Notes: generated by a model from the sequence alone, not told the origin. A DNA stretch of 64,000 nucleotides from an uncultured Acidobacteriota bacterium (GCA_963705525.1 CAVPJW010000004.1:64789-128788), one strand, 5' to 3'. Positions 55,481 to 62,522 are shown, counted from the first letter of the stretch. Numbers and translations: made by a program.

Positions 55481-58400
55481 TCAATAGAAATCGTGTGAGT
55501 CTACCGCGATTGGCGGCAGGCCGTCGAGCCTCTGCACCCGCTCGGCTCGGACCGACGTCGCGCCTTCTTCGCTCTGCAGCATCCCTTCCACGAGCAGAAA
55601 CGGCTGCTCGATGATCGTCAGCCGCTCGCGCGCGTAGAGGTCCGGGCGGACGATGATGTTGGCAATCCCGGTTTCATCTTCGAGTGTTAGAAAGACGAAG
55701 CCCTTGGCGGTGCCTGGCCGCTGGCGCGTAATCACCGTCCCTGCCACCCGCACACGCCGGCCACGCTGCGCGCGCGGCAGGTCGGCCGCGCGCAGCACGC
55801 CGCGGAGTGCCAGATCGGATCGTCGGAGCGCCATGGGATGCGGGCCGATCGTGAGACCTGTGCCGGCATAGTCGGCCTGGATGCGCTCGGTGAGGGACAT
55901 AGGGGTGAGAGGACTCTCTGAAGTTCTCAGTTCTTTGTGCTTAGTGCTTAGTGCCAGTTCCTGGTTCTTAGTGCTTAGTTCGTGCCGAGTGCTCAGTTCG
56001 TTCTTAGTGCCTGGCTCCGGCTGTGTCTCGTCGAAGAGCTCGCCCGCCGGACGGACCGCTCTCTCCACCTGCCAGAGCGCATCTCGGCGATGAGCGCCGA
56101 AGGCCTGAAGCGCGCCGATCTCGGCCAGGGTCTGCAGTTCTTCCCGCCGCAGGCGGGTGCGGGCCACAAGATCGTCCGCCGACGAGAACCGCCGGCGCAT
56201 CACCACGTCACGCCAGTCGTGCGCGCAATTGTTGCAGAAGCAGGTACACGCGACGGGACCGGCTCGTTCGACCGGATGCGCGGCGTCTCGATAACTGACT
56301 TCGAGCATCGAACGATCATCGCAGCCGCACTTCGGACACCGTTCCGGACCAGGGAGCGCACCGCTGGCCGGAAGTGCCGTGGCAATGGCGCGGCCGCACT
56401 CTTCGCGAAGTCCGTTGACGTACCGGAGCCCAAGGCGGACCGTGCCATCCGGCTCGATCGTACATAGCCAGTCGGAGCGCTCCACGTCGATCGACGCGAA
56501 CCGCACGCCCCGTCGTTGGGCATCCTTGACGAGCGTCGCGGGATGATAAAACCCCATCGGCTGGTTGTTGAGCAGGGCCGCATAGAACGCGGCCGGATAA
56601 TGCGCCTTCAGATACGCACTGGCGTACGCCAGCAGCGCAAAGCTGGCGGCGTGCGACTCGGGGAACCCATACAAGGCGAACGAGGTAATCGACCGGACGA
56701 TCTGCTCCGCCGCCTCGTCCGTGATTCCTTTCCGGGCCATTCCTTCTCGAAGCTGCACCTCGATCTGCTTCATCCGTTTTTCCGACCGTTTGAAGCCAAA
56801 GGCTCGACGCAACTCTTCCGCCTGCCCGCCGGTAAATCCCGCCACGACCATCGCAATCCGGAGCAGCTGCTCCTGAAAAAGCGGCACGCCCAGCGTGCGC
56901 GCGAGGATGGGTTCGAGACAAGGATGCGGATACGTGACCACCTCGCGGCCGGCGCGCCGATTGAGATAGGGATGCACCATCTGACCGACGATGGGCCCCG
57001 GGCGGATGATCGCCACTTCGACGACGAGATCGTAGAAGCGCTCGGGGCGCATGCGCGGCAGCGTCGCCATCTGGGCCCGCGATTCGACCTGAAAGACCCC
57101 GATGGTATCGGCCGCCTGCAGCATCCGATAGACGTCGGGATCGTCAGGAGGGAGATGCGCCAGATCCAGCGGCTGGCCCGGCAGAATTCCGTCGCCGCCG
57201 GATCCCTGACTCGAAAGAACCGGTGCGCTCCTCAGGCGTGTGCCGTTGATCAGCTCCAGCGCGTCCTGGAGCACCGCCATCATGCCGAGCCCGAGCAGAT
57301 CGACCTTGACGATGCCCATGTCGGCGCAATCGTCCTTGTCCCACTGAATGACCACGCGACCCGGCATGCTGGCGTTTTCGAGCGGGACAACGCTGTCGAG
57401 CTGTCCCTGGCTGATCACCATGCCGCCCGAATGCTGCCCGAGGTGCCTCGGCAGGTCCTGCATGCGCTGCCACAGATCGGCAAACAGCCGAATCGTCGGA
57501 TCCTTCGGCGACAGGCCGACCTCGTCCAGATGGCGCGTGAGCGTGTCGCCAGGATCCACGAATTCGAAATGATTCATGACCTTGGCGAGTCGATCGATCT
57601 CGGTCGTGTCGAGCCCGAGCACCTTCCCCACTTCGCGCGCGGCGCTCCGGCCCCGGTAGGTAATGACGTTCGCCGTCATCGCCGCACCCAGACGGCCATA
57701 CTTTTCGTACACGTGCTGAATGACACGCTCCCGTCGATCTCCGCTGGGCAGATCGAGATCGATATCGGGCCACTCGCCGCGTTCTTCCGACAGGAACCTC
57801 TCGAAGAGGAGATCCATGCCGACGGGATCGACGGCCGTAATCCCCAGGCTGTAACACACGGCGCTGTTCGCGGCCGACCCTCGCCCCTGCACGAGGATGT
57901 CCTGCTGACGGCAGAAATTGACGATGTCCCAGACGATCAGGAAATAGCCGGCGAGATCGAGCTTGTCGATCAGATCCAGCTCGCGGGCGATCTGCCGGCG
58001 CGCGCGATCGTGATAGGGACGATATCGTTCGCGTGCGCCGACTTCGGCGATCTTGCGGAGAAAGGACATCTTCGTCTCGCCGGGCGGCACGGGATAATCC
58101 GGAAACCGGTAGCCGAGATCGGCCATGCTGTAGGAAAGCCGATCGGCCAGCTCGCGCGTCGCCTGCACGGCGCGTGGCAGGTCGTCGAAGAGCGCGGCCA
58201 TCGCCTCCGGAGACTTCAGATATCGTTCGGCATTCGGCGCCAGCCGGCGCCCGGCGGCATCGAGCGTGGTCTTGTGGTGGATGCAGGTCAGCACGTCGAA
58301 GAGCGGACGCTCGTCCGGGCTGGCGAAACGCACACCATTGGTCGCCAGGATCGGCACCCGGAAGGCCTCCGCCAGATCGATGAGCGTCTGGTTGTCTTCC

Positions 58401-58933
58401 TCCTGATCTCGCAGCATGTGACGCGCGAGCTCGACATACACGCCACTCCGCCCGAACGTCCCGACGAGCCGATCGAGCAGACCTCCAACCCCGTAACGCC
58501 CGGCTGAGAGCAGTTCGCGCCCGGCCAGTGCGACAAGGCCGCGCGTCGAGCCATCGATGTCTTCGAGCCGCAAGACTCCCGCGCCTTTGGGGGCCTCGAT
58601 TTTCATGCGCGTGATCAGGCGACAGAGATTGCGGTAGCCTTCCTGCGATTCGACGAGGAGGGGGAGAAGCCAAGTGGGCGTGGGAGTTCTTAGTTCTTGG
58701 TGCTTAGTTCTTAGTGCGGGCGCCGCGATCGAGAGCTCGGCGCCGATGATCGGCTTGATCCCGGCATGTGTGGCGGCGCGATGAAATCGTGGCGCGCCGT
58801 ATACGCCGTCCCGATCGAGCAACGCCAGCGCCGGATAGCCCAGATTGGCGGCGTGATCGACCAGCGACTCAGGAAGCGATGCGCCCTGGAGGAAACTAAA
58901 GGCCGACGCGGTGTGGAGTTCGAGGTAGGGCAC
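55481..58933 (-). CDS. dnaE2: Error-prone DNA polymerase III alpha-type subunit DnaE2 (ImuC)
   Basis: 1150 aa, GTG start. The PHP N-terminus is LELHTASAFSFLQGAS. The polymerase core carries IGVFQVESRAQM and LYGFPESHAASFALLAYASAYLK. A C-terminal OB-fold region is present. It lies directly downstream of imuA-imuB. Confidence 0.92.
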   Translation of the reverse strand: MPYLELHTASAFSFLQGASLPESLVDHAANLGYPALALLDRDGVYGAPRFHRAATHAGIKPIIGAELSIAAPALRTKHQELRTPTPTWLLPLLVESQEGYRNLCRLITRMKIEAPKGAGVLRLEDIDGSTRGLVALAGRELLSAGRYGVGGLLDRLVGTFGRSGVYVELARHMLRDQEEDNQTLIDLAEAFRVPILATNGVRFASPDERPLFDVLTCIHHKTTLDAAGRRLAPNAERYLKSPEAMAALFDDLPRAVQATRELADRLSYSMADLGYRFPDYPVPPGETKMSFLRKIAEVGARERYRPYHDRARRQIARELDLIDKLDLAGYFLIVWDIVNFCRQQDILVQGRGSAANSAVCYSLGITAVDPVGMDLLFERFLSEERGEWPDIDLDLPSGDRRERVIQHVYEKYGRLGAAMTANVITYRGRSAAREVGKVLGLDTTEIDRLAKVMNHFEFVDPGDTLTRHLDEVGLSPKDPTIRLFADLWQRMQDLPRHLGQHSGGMVISQGQLDSVVPLENASMPGRVVIQWDKDDCADMGIVKVDLLGLGMMAVLQDALELINGTRLRSAPVLSSQGSGGDGILPGQPLDLAHLPPDDPDVYRMLQAADTIGVFQVESRAQMATLPRMRPERFYDLVVEVAIIRPGPIVGQMVHPYLNRRAGREVVTYPHPCLEPILARTLGVPLFQEQLLRIAMVVAGFTGGQAEELRRAFGFKRSEKRMKQIEVQLREGMARKGITDEAAEQIVRSITSFALYGFPESHAASFALLAYASAYLKAHYPAAFYAALLNNQPMGFYHPATLVKDAQRRGVRFASIDVERSDWLCTIEPDGTVRLGLRYVNGLREECGRAIATALPASGALPGPERCPKCGCDDRSMLEVSYRDAAHPVERAGPVACTCFCNNCAHDWRDVVMRRRFSSADDLVARTRLRREELQTLAEIGALQAFGAHRRDALWQVERAVRPAGELFDETQPEPGTKNELSTRHELSTKNQELALSTKHKELRTSESPLTPMSLTERIQADYAGTGLTIGPHPMALRRSDLALRGVLRAADLPRAQRGRRVRVAGTVITRQRPGTAKGFVFLTLEDETGIANIIVRPDLYARERLTIIEQPFLLVEGMLQSEEGATSVRAERVQRLDGLPPIAVDSHDFY
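55922..56012. repeat. Degenerate tandem array of about 13 units of a 7-bp motif (plus-strand AGTTCTT/AGTGCTT), in-frame within dnaE2
   Basis: Plus strand: AGTTCTC AGTTCTT TGTGCTT AGTGCTT AGTGCC AGTTCCT GGTTCTT AGTGCTT AGTTCGT GCCG AGTGCTC AGTTCGT TCTT AGTGCCT. It encodes TKNELSTRHELSTKNQELALSTKHKELRT. Confidence 0.9.
58685..58719. repeat. Five-unit array of the same 7-bp motif, in-frame within the dnaE2 N-terminal region
   Basis: Plus strand: AGTTCTT AGTTCTT GGTGCTT AGTTCTT AGTGCGG. It encodes ALRTKHQELRT. Confidence 0.9.
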
Positions 58934-58937
58934 GAGG

Positions 58938-59025
58938 AGTTCTTGGTTCTGGGTTCTTAGTTCTTTGTTCTACTAAGCACGAAGCACCAAGAACTAAGAC
59001 TACTGGTTCTTAGTTCTTAGTGCCC
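58938..59025. repeat. Intergenic array of the same 7-bp motif filling the imuB-dnaE2 spacer: 5 forward, 4 inverted and 3 forward units
   Basis: AGTTCTT GGTTCTG GGTTCTT AGTTCTT TGTTCTA c TAAGCAC GAAGCAC CAAGAAC TAAGACT act GGTTCTT AGTTCTT AGTGCCC. The 11-nt segment aagaactaaga (58989-58999) is complementary to both 58955-58965 and 59008-59018. Confidence 0.9.
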
Positions 59026-59028
59026 TCG

Positions 59029-60393
59029 TCAATCGATCGTGCCCTCGATGGCCCAGCGGTTCAGTTCGCGATCGCGGGACACGCGATAGACCCCGCCATC
59101 GCTGAGCTCCACATCCCATTCGTCGTGATCCCACGATCGCACCGGCGTCCGTGGCCGCCACCACGCTCCTGACGTGCGCCAGGGCCCGATCGCACAGGCC
59201 ACCATCCCGCCGCTCATGCCACGGCGGTCGGTGGCGATCCGCACCGGCCGATCCTGGGACACGCTGACTCTGGCCGGGATGGGCAACCGGAACCGGCGGA
59301 CGATCAGCGGGCGCGTCGAGCGGGCCGACTCGAGAAGCACACGCGCGGGCGGCATCCTGGTGTCAGGCTTCCGATCGACGGCGTCCAGGAAATTCACCAT
59401 GTCGAAGGCCCCGGGTCGATGGGAATCCACGAGCCGGGGTGCGCCCACGCGCGACTCCCCCATCAATGCCGTGAGCCGTGCCAGGAGCGTTGCCAGGGCT
59501 TCTGCTGATGGACGCGCCCGTGTGAGGAGCGACCATTGCCACACGCGGGCAGGCGTGGGATCGATGGCGATCTGGACGCGATCGATTCCGGCCGGCGGAG
59601 GATGCGACTCGAGATCGAGCAGCGCCAACGTGCGAAGGACGCGCGGATCCCGAAGGGGCGTAGGAAGCTCGAGACGCCGGACGTGCTCGGCGCGCGTGAC
59701 CAGGCGCAGCGCGACGTGGAGCGTCGCCGCTCCGCGATCGCGTCGTTCGAGACGATCGCAGACCGCGTCGAACAGTCGTCCCAGCACGAACGACAATGGC
59801 TCGAGGCCTTCGATGGGCCATTCCAGATCGAGAGCCGCTTCGAACCGTTCTTCGGGCACCGACGCGACGAGTGGTCGACCGTCTTCCCCTCGGGCCAGAC
59901 GCTGCCAAACGAGCCCGGTTTGTCCCAGTCGCTCCGACAACCCGGACGCGGGCAATCGGGCGAGATCGCCGCACGCCTTGAGTCCCCAGCGCCGCAGGGT
60001 CGTCAGCGTGTCGTGCCCGACTTCCGGGGCATCGGGGCGCGTGCTGATCAGCACAAACACACGTTCGAGCACCTGTAGTGGAATACGCGCCAGCGCCGCG
60101 GCGTCCTCTCCATCGGGCACGATCGTCACGCCTCGTCTGCCGTGCGCCAGCAGCATGGCCGTCGCACGACCACCGGCGATCGCCACGTCCAGATCGATCC
60201 CGCGTGCGATCGACTCGCGTCGAATGGCCTCGCCGATCGCGGCAGGGGTTCCAAACATCCGCCGGAGGCCGCTCACGTCGAGCGTGACGACATCAGGCGC
60301 ATGGACCTCGATGCGCGGCGAAAAATCGCGCGCGACGCCCGGCAGCGCCTCAGGTGCGACCGATGATGCCGGGGAACGGAGACAGGCGAACAT
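59029..60393 (-). CDS. imuB: ImuB, Y-family-polymerase-like mutasome subunit
   Basis: MFACLRSP...FSPRIEVHAPDVVTLDVSGLRRMFG is a typical ImuB N-terminus. The ATG at 60393 lies 1 nt after the imuA stop. The ORF opens at 60411. Confidence 0.85.
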   Translation of the reverse strand: MFACLRSPASSVAPEALPGVARDFSPRIEVHAPDVVTLDVSGLRRMFGTPAAIGEAIRRESIARGIDLDVAIAGGRATAMLLAHGRRGVTIVPDGEDAAALARIPLQVLERVFVLISTRPDAPEVGHDTLTTLRRWGLKACGDLARLPASGLSERLGQTGLVWQRLARGEDGRPLVASVPEERFEAALDLEWPIEGLEPLSFVLGRLFDAVCDRLERRDRGAATLHVALRLVTRAEHVRRLELPTPLRDPRVLRTLALLDLESHPPPAGIDRVQIAIDPTPARVWQWSLLTRARPSAEALATLLARLTALMGESRVGAPRLVDSHRPGAFDMVNFLDAVDRKPDTRMPPARVLLESARSTRPLIVRRFRLPIPARVSVSQDRPVRIATDRRGMSGGMVACAIGPWRTSGAWWRPRTPVRSWDHDEWDVELSDGGVYRVSRDRELNRWAIEGTID

Positions 60394-60394
60394 C

Positions 60395-61105
60395 CTAGAG
60401 CCCGCGTGCATGCACCACGCGCGGCTCGATCGCGGGTGGAGAAAAGATGCGCGGTCGGAGAACGACCTGGGGGCGTGCCGTTTGCGACAGCGCGACGGTC
60501 AAGCCGCCGGCGCTCCGTGCCGTGGGTTCCACTCCCATCAACAGGCACACCGTTTCGGTGCCTTCGATCACGCGCTGGAGCCGCATCCACGTGGTGAACG
60601 GCACGCGCTTGATGACCTGCGCCGGCAGATCGACGAGATCCAGCGCCACGAGTCCGAAATGTCCCGTCTGCAGCACGAGATTGAGCGCCTTGAGCGCGCG
60701 GTCGAGAGCCGTGTGGAAGCCGCCCCATTCCTGCGCCAGGCTCGCCCGCGCCGACGACATCGCCTGCCCGCGAATCCAGAGCAGGTGCGCCAGATCGATC
60801 CCCGCCGCAGCCGCCGATTCCGGGTCGAGACTGTCAACCGTATCGACGATCGCCACGAGTTCACCGCGATCGATGGCAGCGGCAGACGATGACAGGAGAA
60901 GGCTGGTGCGGCCCGATGATCGCGGGCCGACGAGATCGGAAATCTGTCCACGCGGCCAGCCGCCTTTCAGCTGAAGGTCGAGTTCGGAAAGGCCCGTTGA
61001 GGCGCTGGGCCAGTCGTCGTGCGCGACTTTTCGAGTGGTCAGCGTGTGATCGAGCTTTCGATCACCCAGTAACGTTTCGAGGTGGGCCCGAGTCGTCTGT
61101 GTCAT
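60395..61105 (-). CDS. imuA: ImuA, RecA/SulA-like mutasome subunit
   Basis: I chose the internal ATG at 61105 (236 aa). It carries a degenerate P-loop GQISDLVGPRSSGRTSLLLS. It is the first gene of the imuA-imuB-dnaE2 arrangement. Confidence 0.75.
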   Translation of the reverse strand: MTQTTRAHLETLLGDRKLDHTLTTRKVAHDDWPSASTGLSELDLQLKGGWPRGQISDLVGPRSSGRTSLLLSSSAAAIDRGELVAIVDTVDSLDPESAAAAGIDLAHLLWIRGQAMSSARASLAQEWGGFHTALDRALKALNLVLQTGHFGLVALDLVDLPAQVIKRVPFTTWMRLQRVIEGTETVCLLMGVEPTARSAGGLTVALSQTARPQVVLRPRIFSPPAIEPRVVHARGL

Positions 61106-61122
61106 CGCGACTTTCGCTTTTT

Positions 61123-61138
61123 GTTCGCTGCCGCGAAC
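61123..61138. promoter_or_regulatory. Palindrome GTTCGCTGCCGCGAAC overlapping the -10 element and downstream region (candidate repressor/SOS operator)
   Basis: A perfect GTTC-N8-GAAC inverted repeat read from the sequence. A second element, GAAC-N8-GAAC, is at 61170-61185, just upstream of the -35. Confidence 0.3.
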
Positions 61139-61165
61139 TATAGCGCAGGGCTGGATCCGGATCAA
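61137..61165 (-). promoter_or_regulatory. Candidate sigma70 promoter of imuA-imuB-dnaE2
   Basis: In gene orientation: TTGATC, a 17-nt spacer, then TATAGT. The -10 element ends about 31 nt upstream of the imuA ATG. Confidence 0.5.
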
Positions 61166-61253
61166 GCGCGAACTTGTGGAAGAACGTCCGTGAGCGGCGT
61201 GTTTAAGGGGGAAGTAACTGACACGTGATAAGATACGGCTCTCCCCTCCTCGC

Positions 61254-62522
61254 TTGGCCGAATCCCTAACCGCTGACGCCCCGGCGGACGAGCCCGCCAG
61301 TTCCAGCCAGCGCGTGTTTCGCCGGCTGGCCGCCGCCCTGAGGTATCGCGATTTCCGGGTCCTCTGGTTCGGGGCCTTCACCTCCAGCGTGGGCACCTGG
61401 ATGCAGAGCGTGGCCGAAAACTGGCTGGTGCTCACGGTGACGGGCTCGGCGTTCTTCCTGGGCCTCGACGCCTTCCTGCAGCAACTTCCCATCATGCTTT
61501 TCACGCTGATCGGCGGCGTCGTCGCCGACCGGCGGGATCGGCGTCGCACGCTGCTGACGTCCCAATACATCCAGATGGCCAGCGCCTTCACGCTCGCGGC
61601 GCTCGTGTACTTCCAGGTGGTTCACATCTGGCACATTCTGGCGCTGTCGTTCACCACGGGTTGTGCGCAGGCGTTCGGCGGACCCGCTTATCAATCGCTC
61701 GTCCCCTCGCTCGTCGAAAAACGCGACCTGCCCAATGCGATCGCGCTCAACTCCATCCAGTTCAACCTGGCGCGCGTCGTCGGACCGCTGCTTGCCGGCG
61801 CGGCGCTGGCCGCCTTCGGGATGGTGTCGTGCTTCGGCCTGAACGGCCTGTCCTTTCTGGTCGTCATCGTCGCGCTGATGTCGCTGCACGTGAAACATGT
61901 CGCGCCCCTGTCGACGCAGAGCATGCTCACCGAGCTCCGCGGAGGCTTTTCGTACGTGCGCGGGGAAGGCAGCATCATGGCGTTGACGGTGCTCGCGGCG
62001 GCCACGACATTTCTGGGATTTCCGCTGCTGACGTTTCTGCCGCTCTTCGCGCAGCGCGTGTTCCACGAAGGGGTCGGCCAGTACAGCCGCCTCATGGCGT
62101 TTTCCGGTGCGGGCGCCGTGTGCGGGGCACTGCTCGTCGCGTGGCTCGGCCGATTCAAGCGAATGGGACTGGCGGCGCTCCTGGTGCAGCTGCTCTTCGG
62201 GGCGCTCGTGATCGGATTCTCGCTGTCACGCGTGCTGTGGCTCAGCTACCTGCTGCTGTTCCTGTGCGGTGGAGCGCTGGTGATCGTGTTTTCACTCATC
62301 ACGTCGCTGGTGCAGCTGATGGCTCCCAATGAAATGCGGGGGCGCGTGATGAGCATCTACATGGTCGCGTTCCGGGGCGGGATGCCGCTCGGCAGCCTGG
62401 CGAGCGGATATTTTGCGAGCCTTACGTCGGCGCCGCTGGTTCTGACCGTGAACGGGGCGTTGCTGATGGTCGTGGCCACCTACTTCGTCATTCGCAACCA
62501 TGGCATCAAGGAGTGCGAGTAG
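61254..62522 (+). CDS. MFS transporter (EntS-like MFS_3 type)
   Basis: 422 aa, about 12 TM helices, with FRVLWFGAFTSSVGTWMQSVAENWLVL and GGVVADRRDRRR. Confidence 0.85.
   Translation: MAESLTADAPADEPASSSQRVFRRLAAALRYRDFRVLWFGAFTSSVGTWMQSVAENWLVLTVTGSAFFLGLDAFLQQLPIMLFTLIGGVVADRRDRRRTLLTSQYIQMASAFTLAALVYFQVVHIWHILALSFTTGCAQAFGGPAYQSLVPSLVEKRDLPNAIALNSIQFNLARVVGPLLAGAALAAFGMVSCFGLNGLSFLVVIVALMSLHVKHVAPLSTQSMLTELRGGFSYVRGEGSIMALTVLAAATTFLGFPLLTFLPLFAQRVFHEGVGQYSRLMAFSGAGAVCGALLVAWLGRFKRMGLAALLVQLLFGALVIGFSLSRVLWLSYLLLFLCGGALVIVFSLITSLVQLMAPNEMRGRVMSIYMVAFRGGMPLGSLASGYFASLTSAPLVLTVNGALLMVVATYFVIRNHGIKECE

Follow-up and report, generated by a model that had tools for sequence, protein, structure and literature searches.

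Rehm et al. 2015 (PMC4692102) described dispersed heptanucleotide repeats, GGGAATC in Xanthomonas and GGGGAYT in Nostoc, with a preference for four units near the ends of open reading frames (ORFs). The TAACTGA repeats of Beggiatoaceae and cyanobacteria lie directly before start codons, contain stops in all frames and have rare intragenic copies (MacGregor 2015, PMC4679880). Repeats of the repetitive extragenic palindromic (REP) type, including the Rickettsia palindromic elements, are strikingly common inside DnaE2 and excinuclease ABC genes; in some species no other ORF carries them, and insertion at the same site was noted only for Xanthomonas recB (Di Nocera et al. 2013, PMC3733652). In Haemophilus influenzae heptanucleotide tracts of 6-38 identical units, variable between strains, occupy the hmw1A/hmw2A promoters and a homologue of HI1369 (Power et al. 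2009, PMC2651432). In a full-text literature search no publication connected dnaE2 or imuB with heptamer or tandem repeats. Here we analysed an array of 7-nucleotide (nt) units at positions 58685-58719 of a 64-kb stretch of DNA (the window) from an uncultured bacterium of the Vicinamibacterales (Acidobacteriota). The array lies in frame inside a gene that we read as dnaE2 (imuC), for an error-prone paralogue of the DNA polymerase III (Pol III) alpha subunit, and is probably a near-neutral passenger copy of a dispersed element in a permissive surface loop of the PHP domain.

On the plus strand the 35 nt read AGTTCTT AGTTCTT GGTGCTT AGTTCTT AGTGCGG, to the letter the five units given in a preliminary description of the window, and Tandem Repeats Finder assigned them period 7 and 4.4 copies. 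The two-unit motif, allowing up to two mismatches, had 13 occurrences in the window, where shuffled sequence predicts 0.09, and all 13 were at the dnaE2 locus. The gene runs on the minus strand, where the codons over the array are CCC GCA CTA AGA ACT AAG CAC CAA GAA CTA AGA ACT. They are translated as P72 followed by ALRTKHQELRT (A73-T83) of the 1150-aa DnaE2/ImuC. The peptide is preceded by GAELS (residues 64-68) and followed by LLPLLVES (89-96), the next conserved segment. Its identity and its place after GAELS, where the PHP domain is not conserved, were both correctly given in the preliminary description.

The host genome (G000; 5.6 Mb, 98.3% complete) was scanned for [AG]GT[TG]CTT units, and 164 arrays of the AGTTCTT family were found. 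Exactly four units were present in 119 of them (73%), and runs of identical units reached three at most. The first unit is nearly always AGTTCTT, with G at position -2 in 75% of the arrays, and the array passes at its other end into AG(tgcg), giving the genome-wide logo tG[T/A] AGTTCTT RGTKCTT RGTKCTT RGTTCTT AGtgcg. The dnaE2 copy, a single arm of four units with the tail AGTGCGG, antisense to the gene and translated as residues 72/73-83, matched this logo without a mismatch. We regard the 35 nt as probably an ordinary copy of the most abundant dispersed heptamer element of the host genome and not as a local expanding microsatellite.

The same survey bears on how the array avoids stop codons, which had been ascribed to a single substitution. 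The codon of Q79 is CAA and would read TAA had unit 3 started with A, and the G-initial unit does remove the only in-frame TAA. The substitution is, however, not specific to dnaE2: the first-letter pattern A-A-G-A of this copy is the commonest among the four-unit copies (34/119), G stands at position 14 in 52% of the family, and at least one frame of the AAGAACT strand is free of stops in 144 of the 164 copies. Because A-A-G-A with its stop-avoiding G is the usual form of the element, no adaptation after insertion need be assumed.

Tracts of period 7 are abundant in the host genome, 301 compared with 78 of period 5, 72 of period 8 and 19 of period 9, and include further heptamer families of the types AGGCTTC, AGCRATG, CTGAACC and CTGATAA (equal to TAACTGA). 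Arrays of CTGATAA, CTGAAAA and CTGACAA, the equivalents of the TAACTGA type, form about 21 tracts, often just downstream of an AGTTCTT array, as in the downstream flanks of C7:146651 and C4:1486521. Repeats of this type are known from Beggiatoaceae, cyanobacteria and Bacteroidetes.

Genes were placed with a crude caller based on codon usage, whose start sites are unreliable. By this placement 115 of the 164 AGTTCTT arrays were intergenic, 41 touched only the end of a gene, usually because the ORF ran into the first TAG or TAA of the array, and 8 lay inside called ORFs. In most cases the 5' end of the array was 0-30 nt from a stop or start codon. Three of the eight ORF-internal arrays are those of dnaE2; the other five, at 32-258 nt from the called start, probably reflect mis-called starts, and one that was checked, in the gene of an NtrC-like regulator (C3:166569), was a clear case. 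Thus the only deep intragenic arrays of the family are the three in dnaE2. With all heptamer families counted, deep in-frame arrays were found only in dnaE2 (two sites), in the linker of uvrC and in one radical-SAM gene. In uvrC an in-frame inverted pair of AGGCTAC and GAAGCCC arrays (C2:358986-359111) occupies the linker before the RNase H-like endonuclease domain. Heptamer arrays at this linker were present in 7 of 29 relatives (L217, L218, L220, L221, L225, L231 and L241), that is, in 8 of 30 genomes with the host included, and the control periods gave one (period 6) and none (period 8). The radical-SAM-like gene, which has a B12-binding domain (C4:424640-426055), carries an in-frame AGCRATG array at C4:425619-425657 that encodes a stretch including DPHRSSLIAHRYP.

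In most of these properties the element resembles the heptanucleotide repeats of Xanthomonas and Nostoc and the TAACTGA repeats (PMC4692102, PMC4679880). It has a 7-nt unit, hundreds of mostly intergenic copies of about four units and inverted pairs; it lies within tens of bases of stops, or just before starts without a ribosome-binding site; its pure arrays have stops in all three frames, and intragenic copies are rare. Unlike the repeats of PMC4692102 the AGTTCTT unit is not G-rich and its host is an acidobacterium. Since this unit is unable to form a G-quadruplex and yet shows four repeats in 119 of 164 arrays, the G-quadruplex account of the four-unit preference (PMC4692102) cannot be general. 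A further difference concerns the intragenic copies, which in those systems are confined to the ends of proteins, whereas the dnaE2 copy lies in a loop within the fold of a catalytic domain.

The REP-type repeats of PMC3733652 are likewise short, dispersed, normally extragenic beside stop codons and occasionally in frame in genes, and of the three genes with deep in-frame arrays here, two are dnaE2 and uvrC. Inverted doublets with a spacer, as in REPINs, also exist in the AGTTCTT family: within 120 nt we counted 30 inverted pairs (60 arrays) in one sense and 1 in the opposite sense, the dnaE2 copy being a singlet. The arms, however, are made of tandem heptamers instead of one palindrome each, and they do not fold individually (mean energy -4.90 kcal/mol against -4.76 for shuffles). 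The tetranucleotide GTAG, which like CGTC is typical of one end of REPs, stood at the start of 52 of the 164 copies (32%); GAAG was found in 43, and the dnaE2 copy has GGAG. No match to a Y1/HUH transposase (RAYT, PF01797) was detected in the 98.3%-complete host genome, in a search whose control was positive in 6 of 14 reference genomes. With no Y1 transposase and no palindromic arms, we rejected an assignment to RAYT-driven REPs or REPINs. In contrast to the REP-type repeats, moreover, the same four sites of dnaE2 have been hit repeatedly throughout an order, each time by units without relation to one another. REP-type repeats in DnaE2 and excinuclease genes are thus already known; new here are the non-palindromic heptamer class, the lack of a RAYT, the other phylum and the recurrence at the level of sites throughout the order.

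The protein segment that received the array appears to be a flexible loop. An AlphaFold2 model built from 46 orthologues (mean predicted local distance difference test score, pLDDT, 82) places a strand at residues 60-70, coil at 71-86 and a strand at 87-94, with a mean pLDDT of 64 over residues 71-80. The variable loop comprises residues 69-88 (IAAPALRTKHQELRTPTPTW), is encoded at 58670-58729 on the minus strand and exceeds its counterpart in Escherichia coli Pol III alpha by 9 residues. The same loop has 15-18 nt (5-6 residues) in Bryobacterales, Solibacterales, Rokubacteria and others. Among 174 orthologues, mostly from Vicinamibacterales, its length ranged from 12 to 291 nt with the reading frame kept in 172, and over the 46 orthologues of the model it could not be aligned, the consensus being 'x' throughout.

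In 61 of the 174 orthologues (35%) the loop contained at least four heptamers, while control periods gave 2 (period 5), 1 (period 6), 2 (period 8), 9 (period 9) and 0 (period 10). These heptamers belong to dozens of unit types that show no relation to one another, and many inserts are inverted pairs with four units each; in one orthologue (L010), for example, GT is followed by four AGTGGTC units, a loop, and four units more ending in ACTAC. Close relatives differ here. In a pair from the same genus the loop measures 15 nt in one and 90 nt in the other, the surplus 75 nt holding a four-unit inverted-pair element, and in a pair of 94.7% identity it measures 24 and 108 nt. The loops of two orthologues of 98.9% identity, L164 and L184, differ by one in-frame 18-nt unit. 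These two sequences are from metagenome contigs (Ga0308173_10008682 and Ga0308174_10004902); here a tract derived from CACGATT has turned into an 18-nt repeat (PIRDSR/PIHDSR) of about 10 copies, and the one-copy difference shows that length varies here in nature with the frame kept.

The PHP loop is one of several such places. Over 100 dnaE2 loci the period-7 tracts cluster at four sites, residues ~70-105, 558-640, 837-935 and 950-1050, and the imuB side of the orthologous loci is likewise rich in them. We compared genes by the number of period-7 tracts inside them per kb of coding DNA scanned, in the same set of relatives. There were 185 tracts in 335 kb of dnaE2 (100 loci), with 19 tracts in the 20 loci of the closest relatives, and 12 tracts in 55 kb of uvrC (30 loci), nearly all at the one linker and in about 8 genomes. 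The replicative paralogue dnaE1 had none in 105 kb (30 loci). Single tracts were found in ftsK (71 kb, 28 loci), infB (65 kb, 29 loci) and polA (81 kb, 30 loci; at the edge of the ORF), and four in mfd (65 kb, 30 loci; near the C-terminus). The mutasome genes and uvrC stand out for in-gene heptamer tracts. We rejected the idea that any flexible linker collects arrays, given the counts for ftsK, infB and dnaE1. The idea that all DNA-repair genes do so was not supported either, with polA near zero and mfd at no more than four, all at the C-terminal margin.

The gene itself was assigned from its domains and its surroundings. The coding sequence at 55481-58933 (minus strand, GTG start at 58933) has Pfam matches to PHP, DNA_pol3_alpha, finger, HHH_6 and OB. 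Upstream of it on the same strand are an imuB-like gene for an inactive Y-family polymerase (59029-60411) and an imuA-like gene with a RecA fold (60395-61591; Pfam RecA, E 2.9e-11). The label ImuB depends on gene order and on weak matches to IMS_C and IMS_HHH_1, at or below the Pfam cut-off. A separate replicative dnaE1, whose product is 34% identical to DnaE2, lies at C2:757806-761339 of the host genome. Because the Pol III alpha domains occur together with ImuA- and ImuB-like genes upstream on the same strand and with a separate replicative dnaE, we assign the gene, from its sequence and context, as the dnaE2/imuC of an imuA-imuB-dnaE2 mutasome cassette. A Cys-rich insertion (CxxCxC ... CxCxCxxC) at about residues 855-912 of DnaE2 (56198-56371) coincides with the third of the four hot spots of the orthologues (residues 837-935).

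Other arrays of the AGTTCTT family surround the copy in the PHP loop. Two adjoining arrays lie in frame in the C-terminal linker of dnaE2 (55922-56012, plus strand). In the spacer between imuB and dnaE2 an array in the same orientation as the in-gene copy (58938-58971, plus strand) ends 4 nt from the GTG start, and a short array GGTTCTT AGTTCTT AGTGCCC (59005-59021, plus strand) marks the imuB end. The preliminary description rightly noted that the other two arrays share the orientation and the terminal unit type (AGTGCSS) of the PHP-loop copy; those at 55922-56012 and 58938-59021 have ends of the AGTGCC type. Between the two spacer arrays lies the sole arm of the locus on the opposite strand, AGTTCTT GGTGCTT CGTGCTT (58975-58995, minus strand), which is complementary to its neighbours and, over 14 nt, to the copy inside dnaE2. 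No Shine-Dalgarno sequence was found before the GTG at 58933; the mRNA there consists of AAGAACU-type repeats that end 4 nt short of the start, with CCUC between (58931-58971). An arrangement like that of the spacer array, 4-30 nt away from a called start, is shared by about 40 arrays of the host genome.

We propose that the element, which is normally found in spacers close to the ends of genes, singly or in inverted pairs, was here copied into the PHP loop between the GAELSI and LLPLLVES strands. Three features may explain why it persisted. The element plus one base makes 12 whole codons (36 nt), dnaE2 reads the single frame that the A-A-G-A pattern leaves free of stops on the AAGAACT strand, and the loop would accept almost any insert. 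The product would be a hydrophilic, probably disordered addition of 12 residues to the loop. The lack of a Y1 transposase and the local clustering of same-family arrays suggest that copying went by template switching linked to replication or repair, or by gene conversion with arrays close by, after which selection would purge inserts that are out of frame or contain stops. In 147 orthologues we compared the PHP-loop sequence with the upstream spacer for shared stretches of at least 12 nt, and found 16 direct and 14 complementary matches, with 0 and 1 respectively in a control region. Such sharing points to local spread of same-family arrays between spacer and gene.

Three points weigh against this account. 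Tolerance of the loop alone fails to explain why dnaE2 and uvrC are enriched over dnaE1, ftsK, infB, polA and mfd. The copy has not decayed from the family consensus, which fits a recent arrival and active maintenance equally well. Finally, no allele of the host species free of the insertion was present in any collection, and the insertion event is read from distant relatives.

An RNA control element is one alternative, and in our estimate an unlikely one. The translated AAGAACU array would then be bound by a putative protein resembling S1, Csp or CsrA, or would pair with the antisense arm in the spacer, and so tune the amount of DnaE2. The enrichment of arrays in dnaE2, imuB and uvrC above what tolerance predicts speaks for it, as does the same-family array ending 4 nt before a GTG that has no Shine-Dalgarno sequence, a layout common to many other genes and known for the TAACTGA repeats (PMC4679880). 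When the spacer and the first 270 nt of dnaE2 were folded, the fold exceeded shuffles in stability (z = -3.1), and the predicted centroid structure paired the antisense arm at 58975-58995 with the in-gene copy. The minimum-free-energy structure, on the other hand, paired locally only, with a hairpin within the spacer, and the transcribed in-gene arm is predicted to be unstructured on its own (0.0 kcal/mol). Among the orthologues complementary matches to the spacer were no commoner than direct ones; a dedicated long-range RNA helix is therefore not supported. The units also differ completely between lineages, which argues against a shared sequence-specific binding site. We rejected a specific long-range pairing between the copy and the spacer arm, because it appeared in the centroid structure alone and the orthologues showed no preference for complementary matches, and treat the predicted centroid pairing as a lead and not as evidence. 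The idea of LexA boxes was also dropped: GTTC recurs at 7-nt spacing and not at the N7/N8 of known boxes, and other lineages have units that lack GTTC.

In a broader form of this idea, the arrays in dnaE2, imuB and uvrC of Vicinamibacterales would be selected or targeted features through which genes for damage tolerance come under a control layer built on heptamers. The layer might consist of RNA pairing or of a regulator acting after transcription; where a lineage has long perfect tracts, it might be a true switching of the mutasome by frameshifts. The enrichment beyond tolerance implies that insertion is targeted to dnaE2 and uvrC or that arrays are selected for there; for the broader idea as a whole we see a slim chance.

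The preliminary description had suggested that the array switches dnaE2 on and off. By this proposal slipped-strand mispairing would add or remove one heptamer, shift the frame at about codon 75 and turn error-prone synthesis off or on in a subpopulation. Its premises were correct: the array has two perfect adjacent units, the 7-nt unit is not a multiple of three and lies early in the gene (codons 72-83 of 1150), and gain or loss of one unit would shift the frame, as in the H. influenzae tracts (PMC2651432). Some orthologues do have long perfect tracts at the PHP loop (identity 1.0 over at least four units, at several loci). The conclusion was nevertheless not supported for this copy, and we consider the switch very unlikely. 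Documented heptanucleotide switches have 6-38 units (PMC2651432), whereas two identical units adjoin here, runs in the family do not exceed three, and the format, typically of four units, is fixed across 164 paralogous copies. The two out-of-frame loops among the 174 (L067 and L079) both hold arrays, but the other 172 are in frame. The one-unit difference between L164 and L184 might suggest slippage as well, but it concerns the in-frame 18-nt unit. A dnaE2 of another genome (G009) changes frame at two array sites, but also at a third place without an array. Since the two out-of-frame loops and the G009 gene stem from long-read metagenome bins, indel errors could explain them as well. Because only two identical units adjoin, the array at 58685-58719 in its present form is not expected to switch dnaE2 at a useful rate; population-level variation in its length in the host species lies outside the present data.

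Of the three frame changes in the G009 gene (L131; G009:C22:102500-108200), two lie within inverted arrays of AGGCTCC/GGAGCCT, at the first and second hot spots, and the third is near residue 961. The gene could be a pseudogene or a frameshifted allele, or the assembly could be in error. N-terminal fragments of DnaE2, 230-350 aa long, were also seen on long contigs of 23 kb to 1.1 Mb (P0013, P0026, P0052, P0056, P0060, P0061, P0064 and P0076), and interrupted dnaE2 genes may be common in assemblies of Vicinamibacterales.

No close relative of the host was found in metagenome contigs, species genomes or a collection of 15 billion proteins. A pattern of the exact flanks with a variable gap had no match in metagenome contigs, and protein-guided scans of metagenomes and genomes gave no relative above 72-77% identity. 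The 90%-identity cluster had one member, and in 5.8 billion clusters the best N-terminal fragment was 69% identical.

We give next to no credence to the reading that the segment is a functional peptide conserved in DnaE2 proteins and repetitive only in appearance at the DNA level: the open frame is all that speaks for it, the nucleotides agree perfectly with a mostly intergenic element of 164 copies, and ALRTKHQELRT is not a conserved family feature, because the loop has 5-6 residues in other acidobacterial orders, varies from 12 to 291 nt in the 174 orthologues and cannot be aligned over 46. Conservation thus gives no argument against the earlier description of the segment as a repeat.

Taken singly, the locus is unremarkable, a probable passenger copy of the repeat that a flexible loop tolerates. 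The notable pattern concerns a whole order of Acidobacteria abundant in soil, in which unrelated heptamers have repeatedly entered the same loops of dnaE2 and imuB and the linker of uvrC, nearly always in frame, while the replicative paralogue dnaE1 and linker-rich housekeeping genes have been spared. This recurrence at the level of single sites makes it testable why repair genes attract such repeats.

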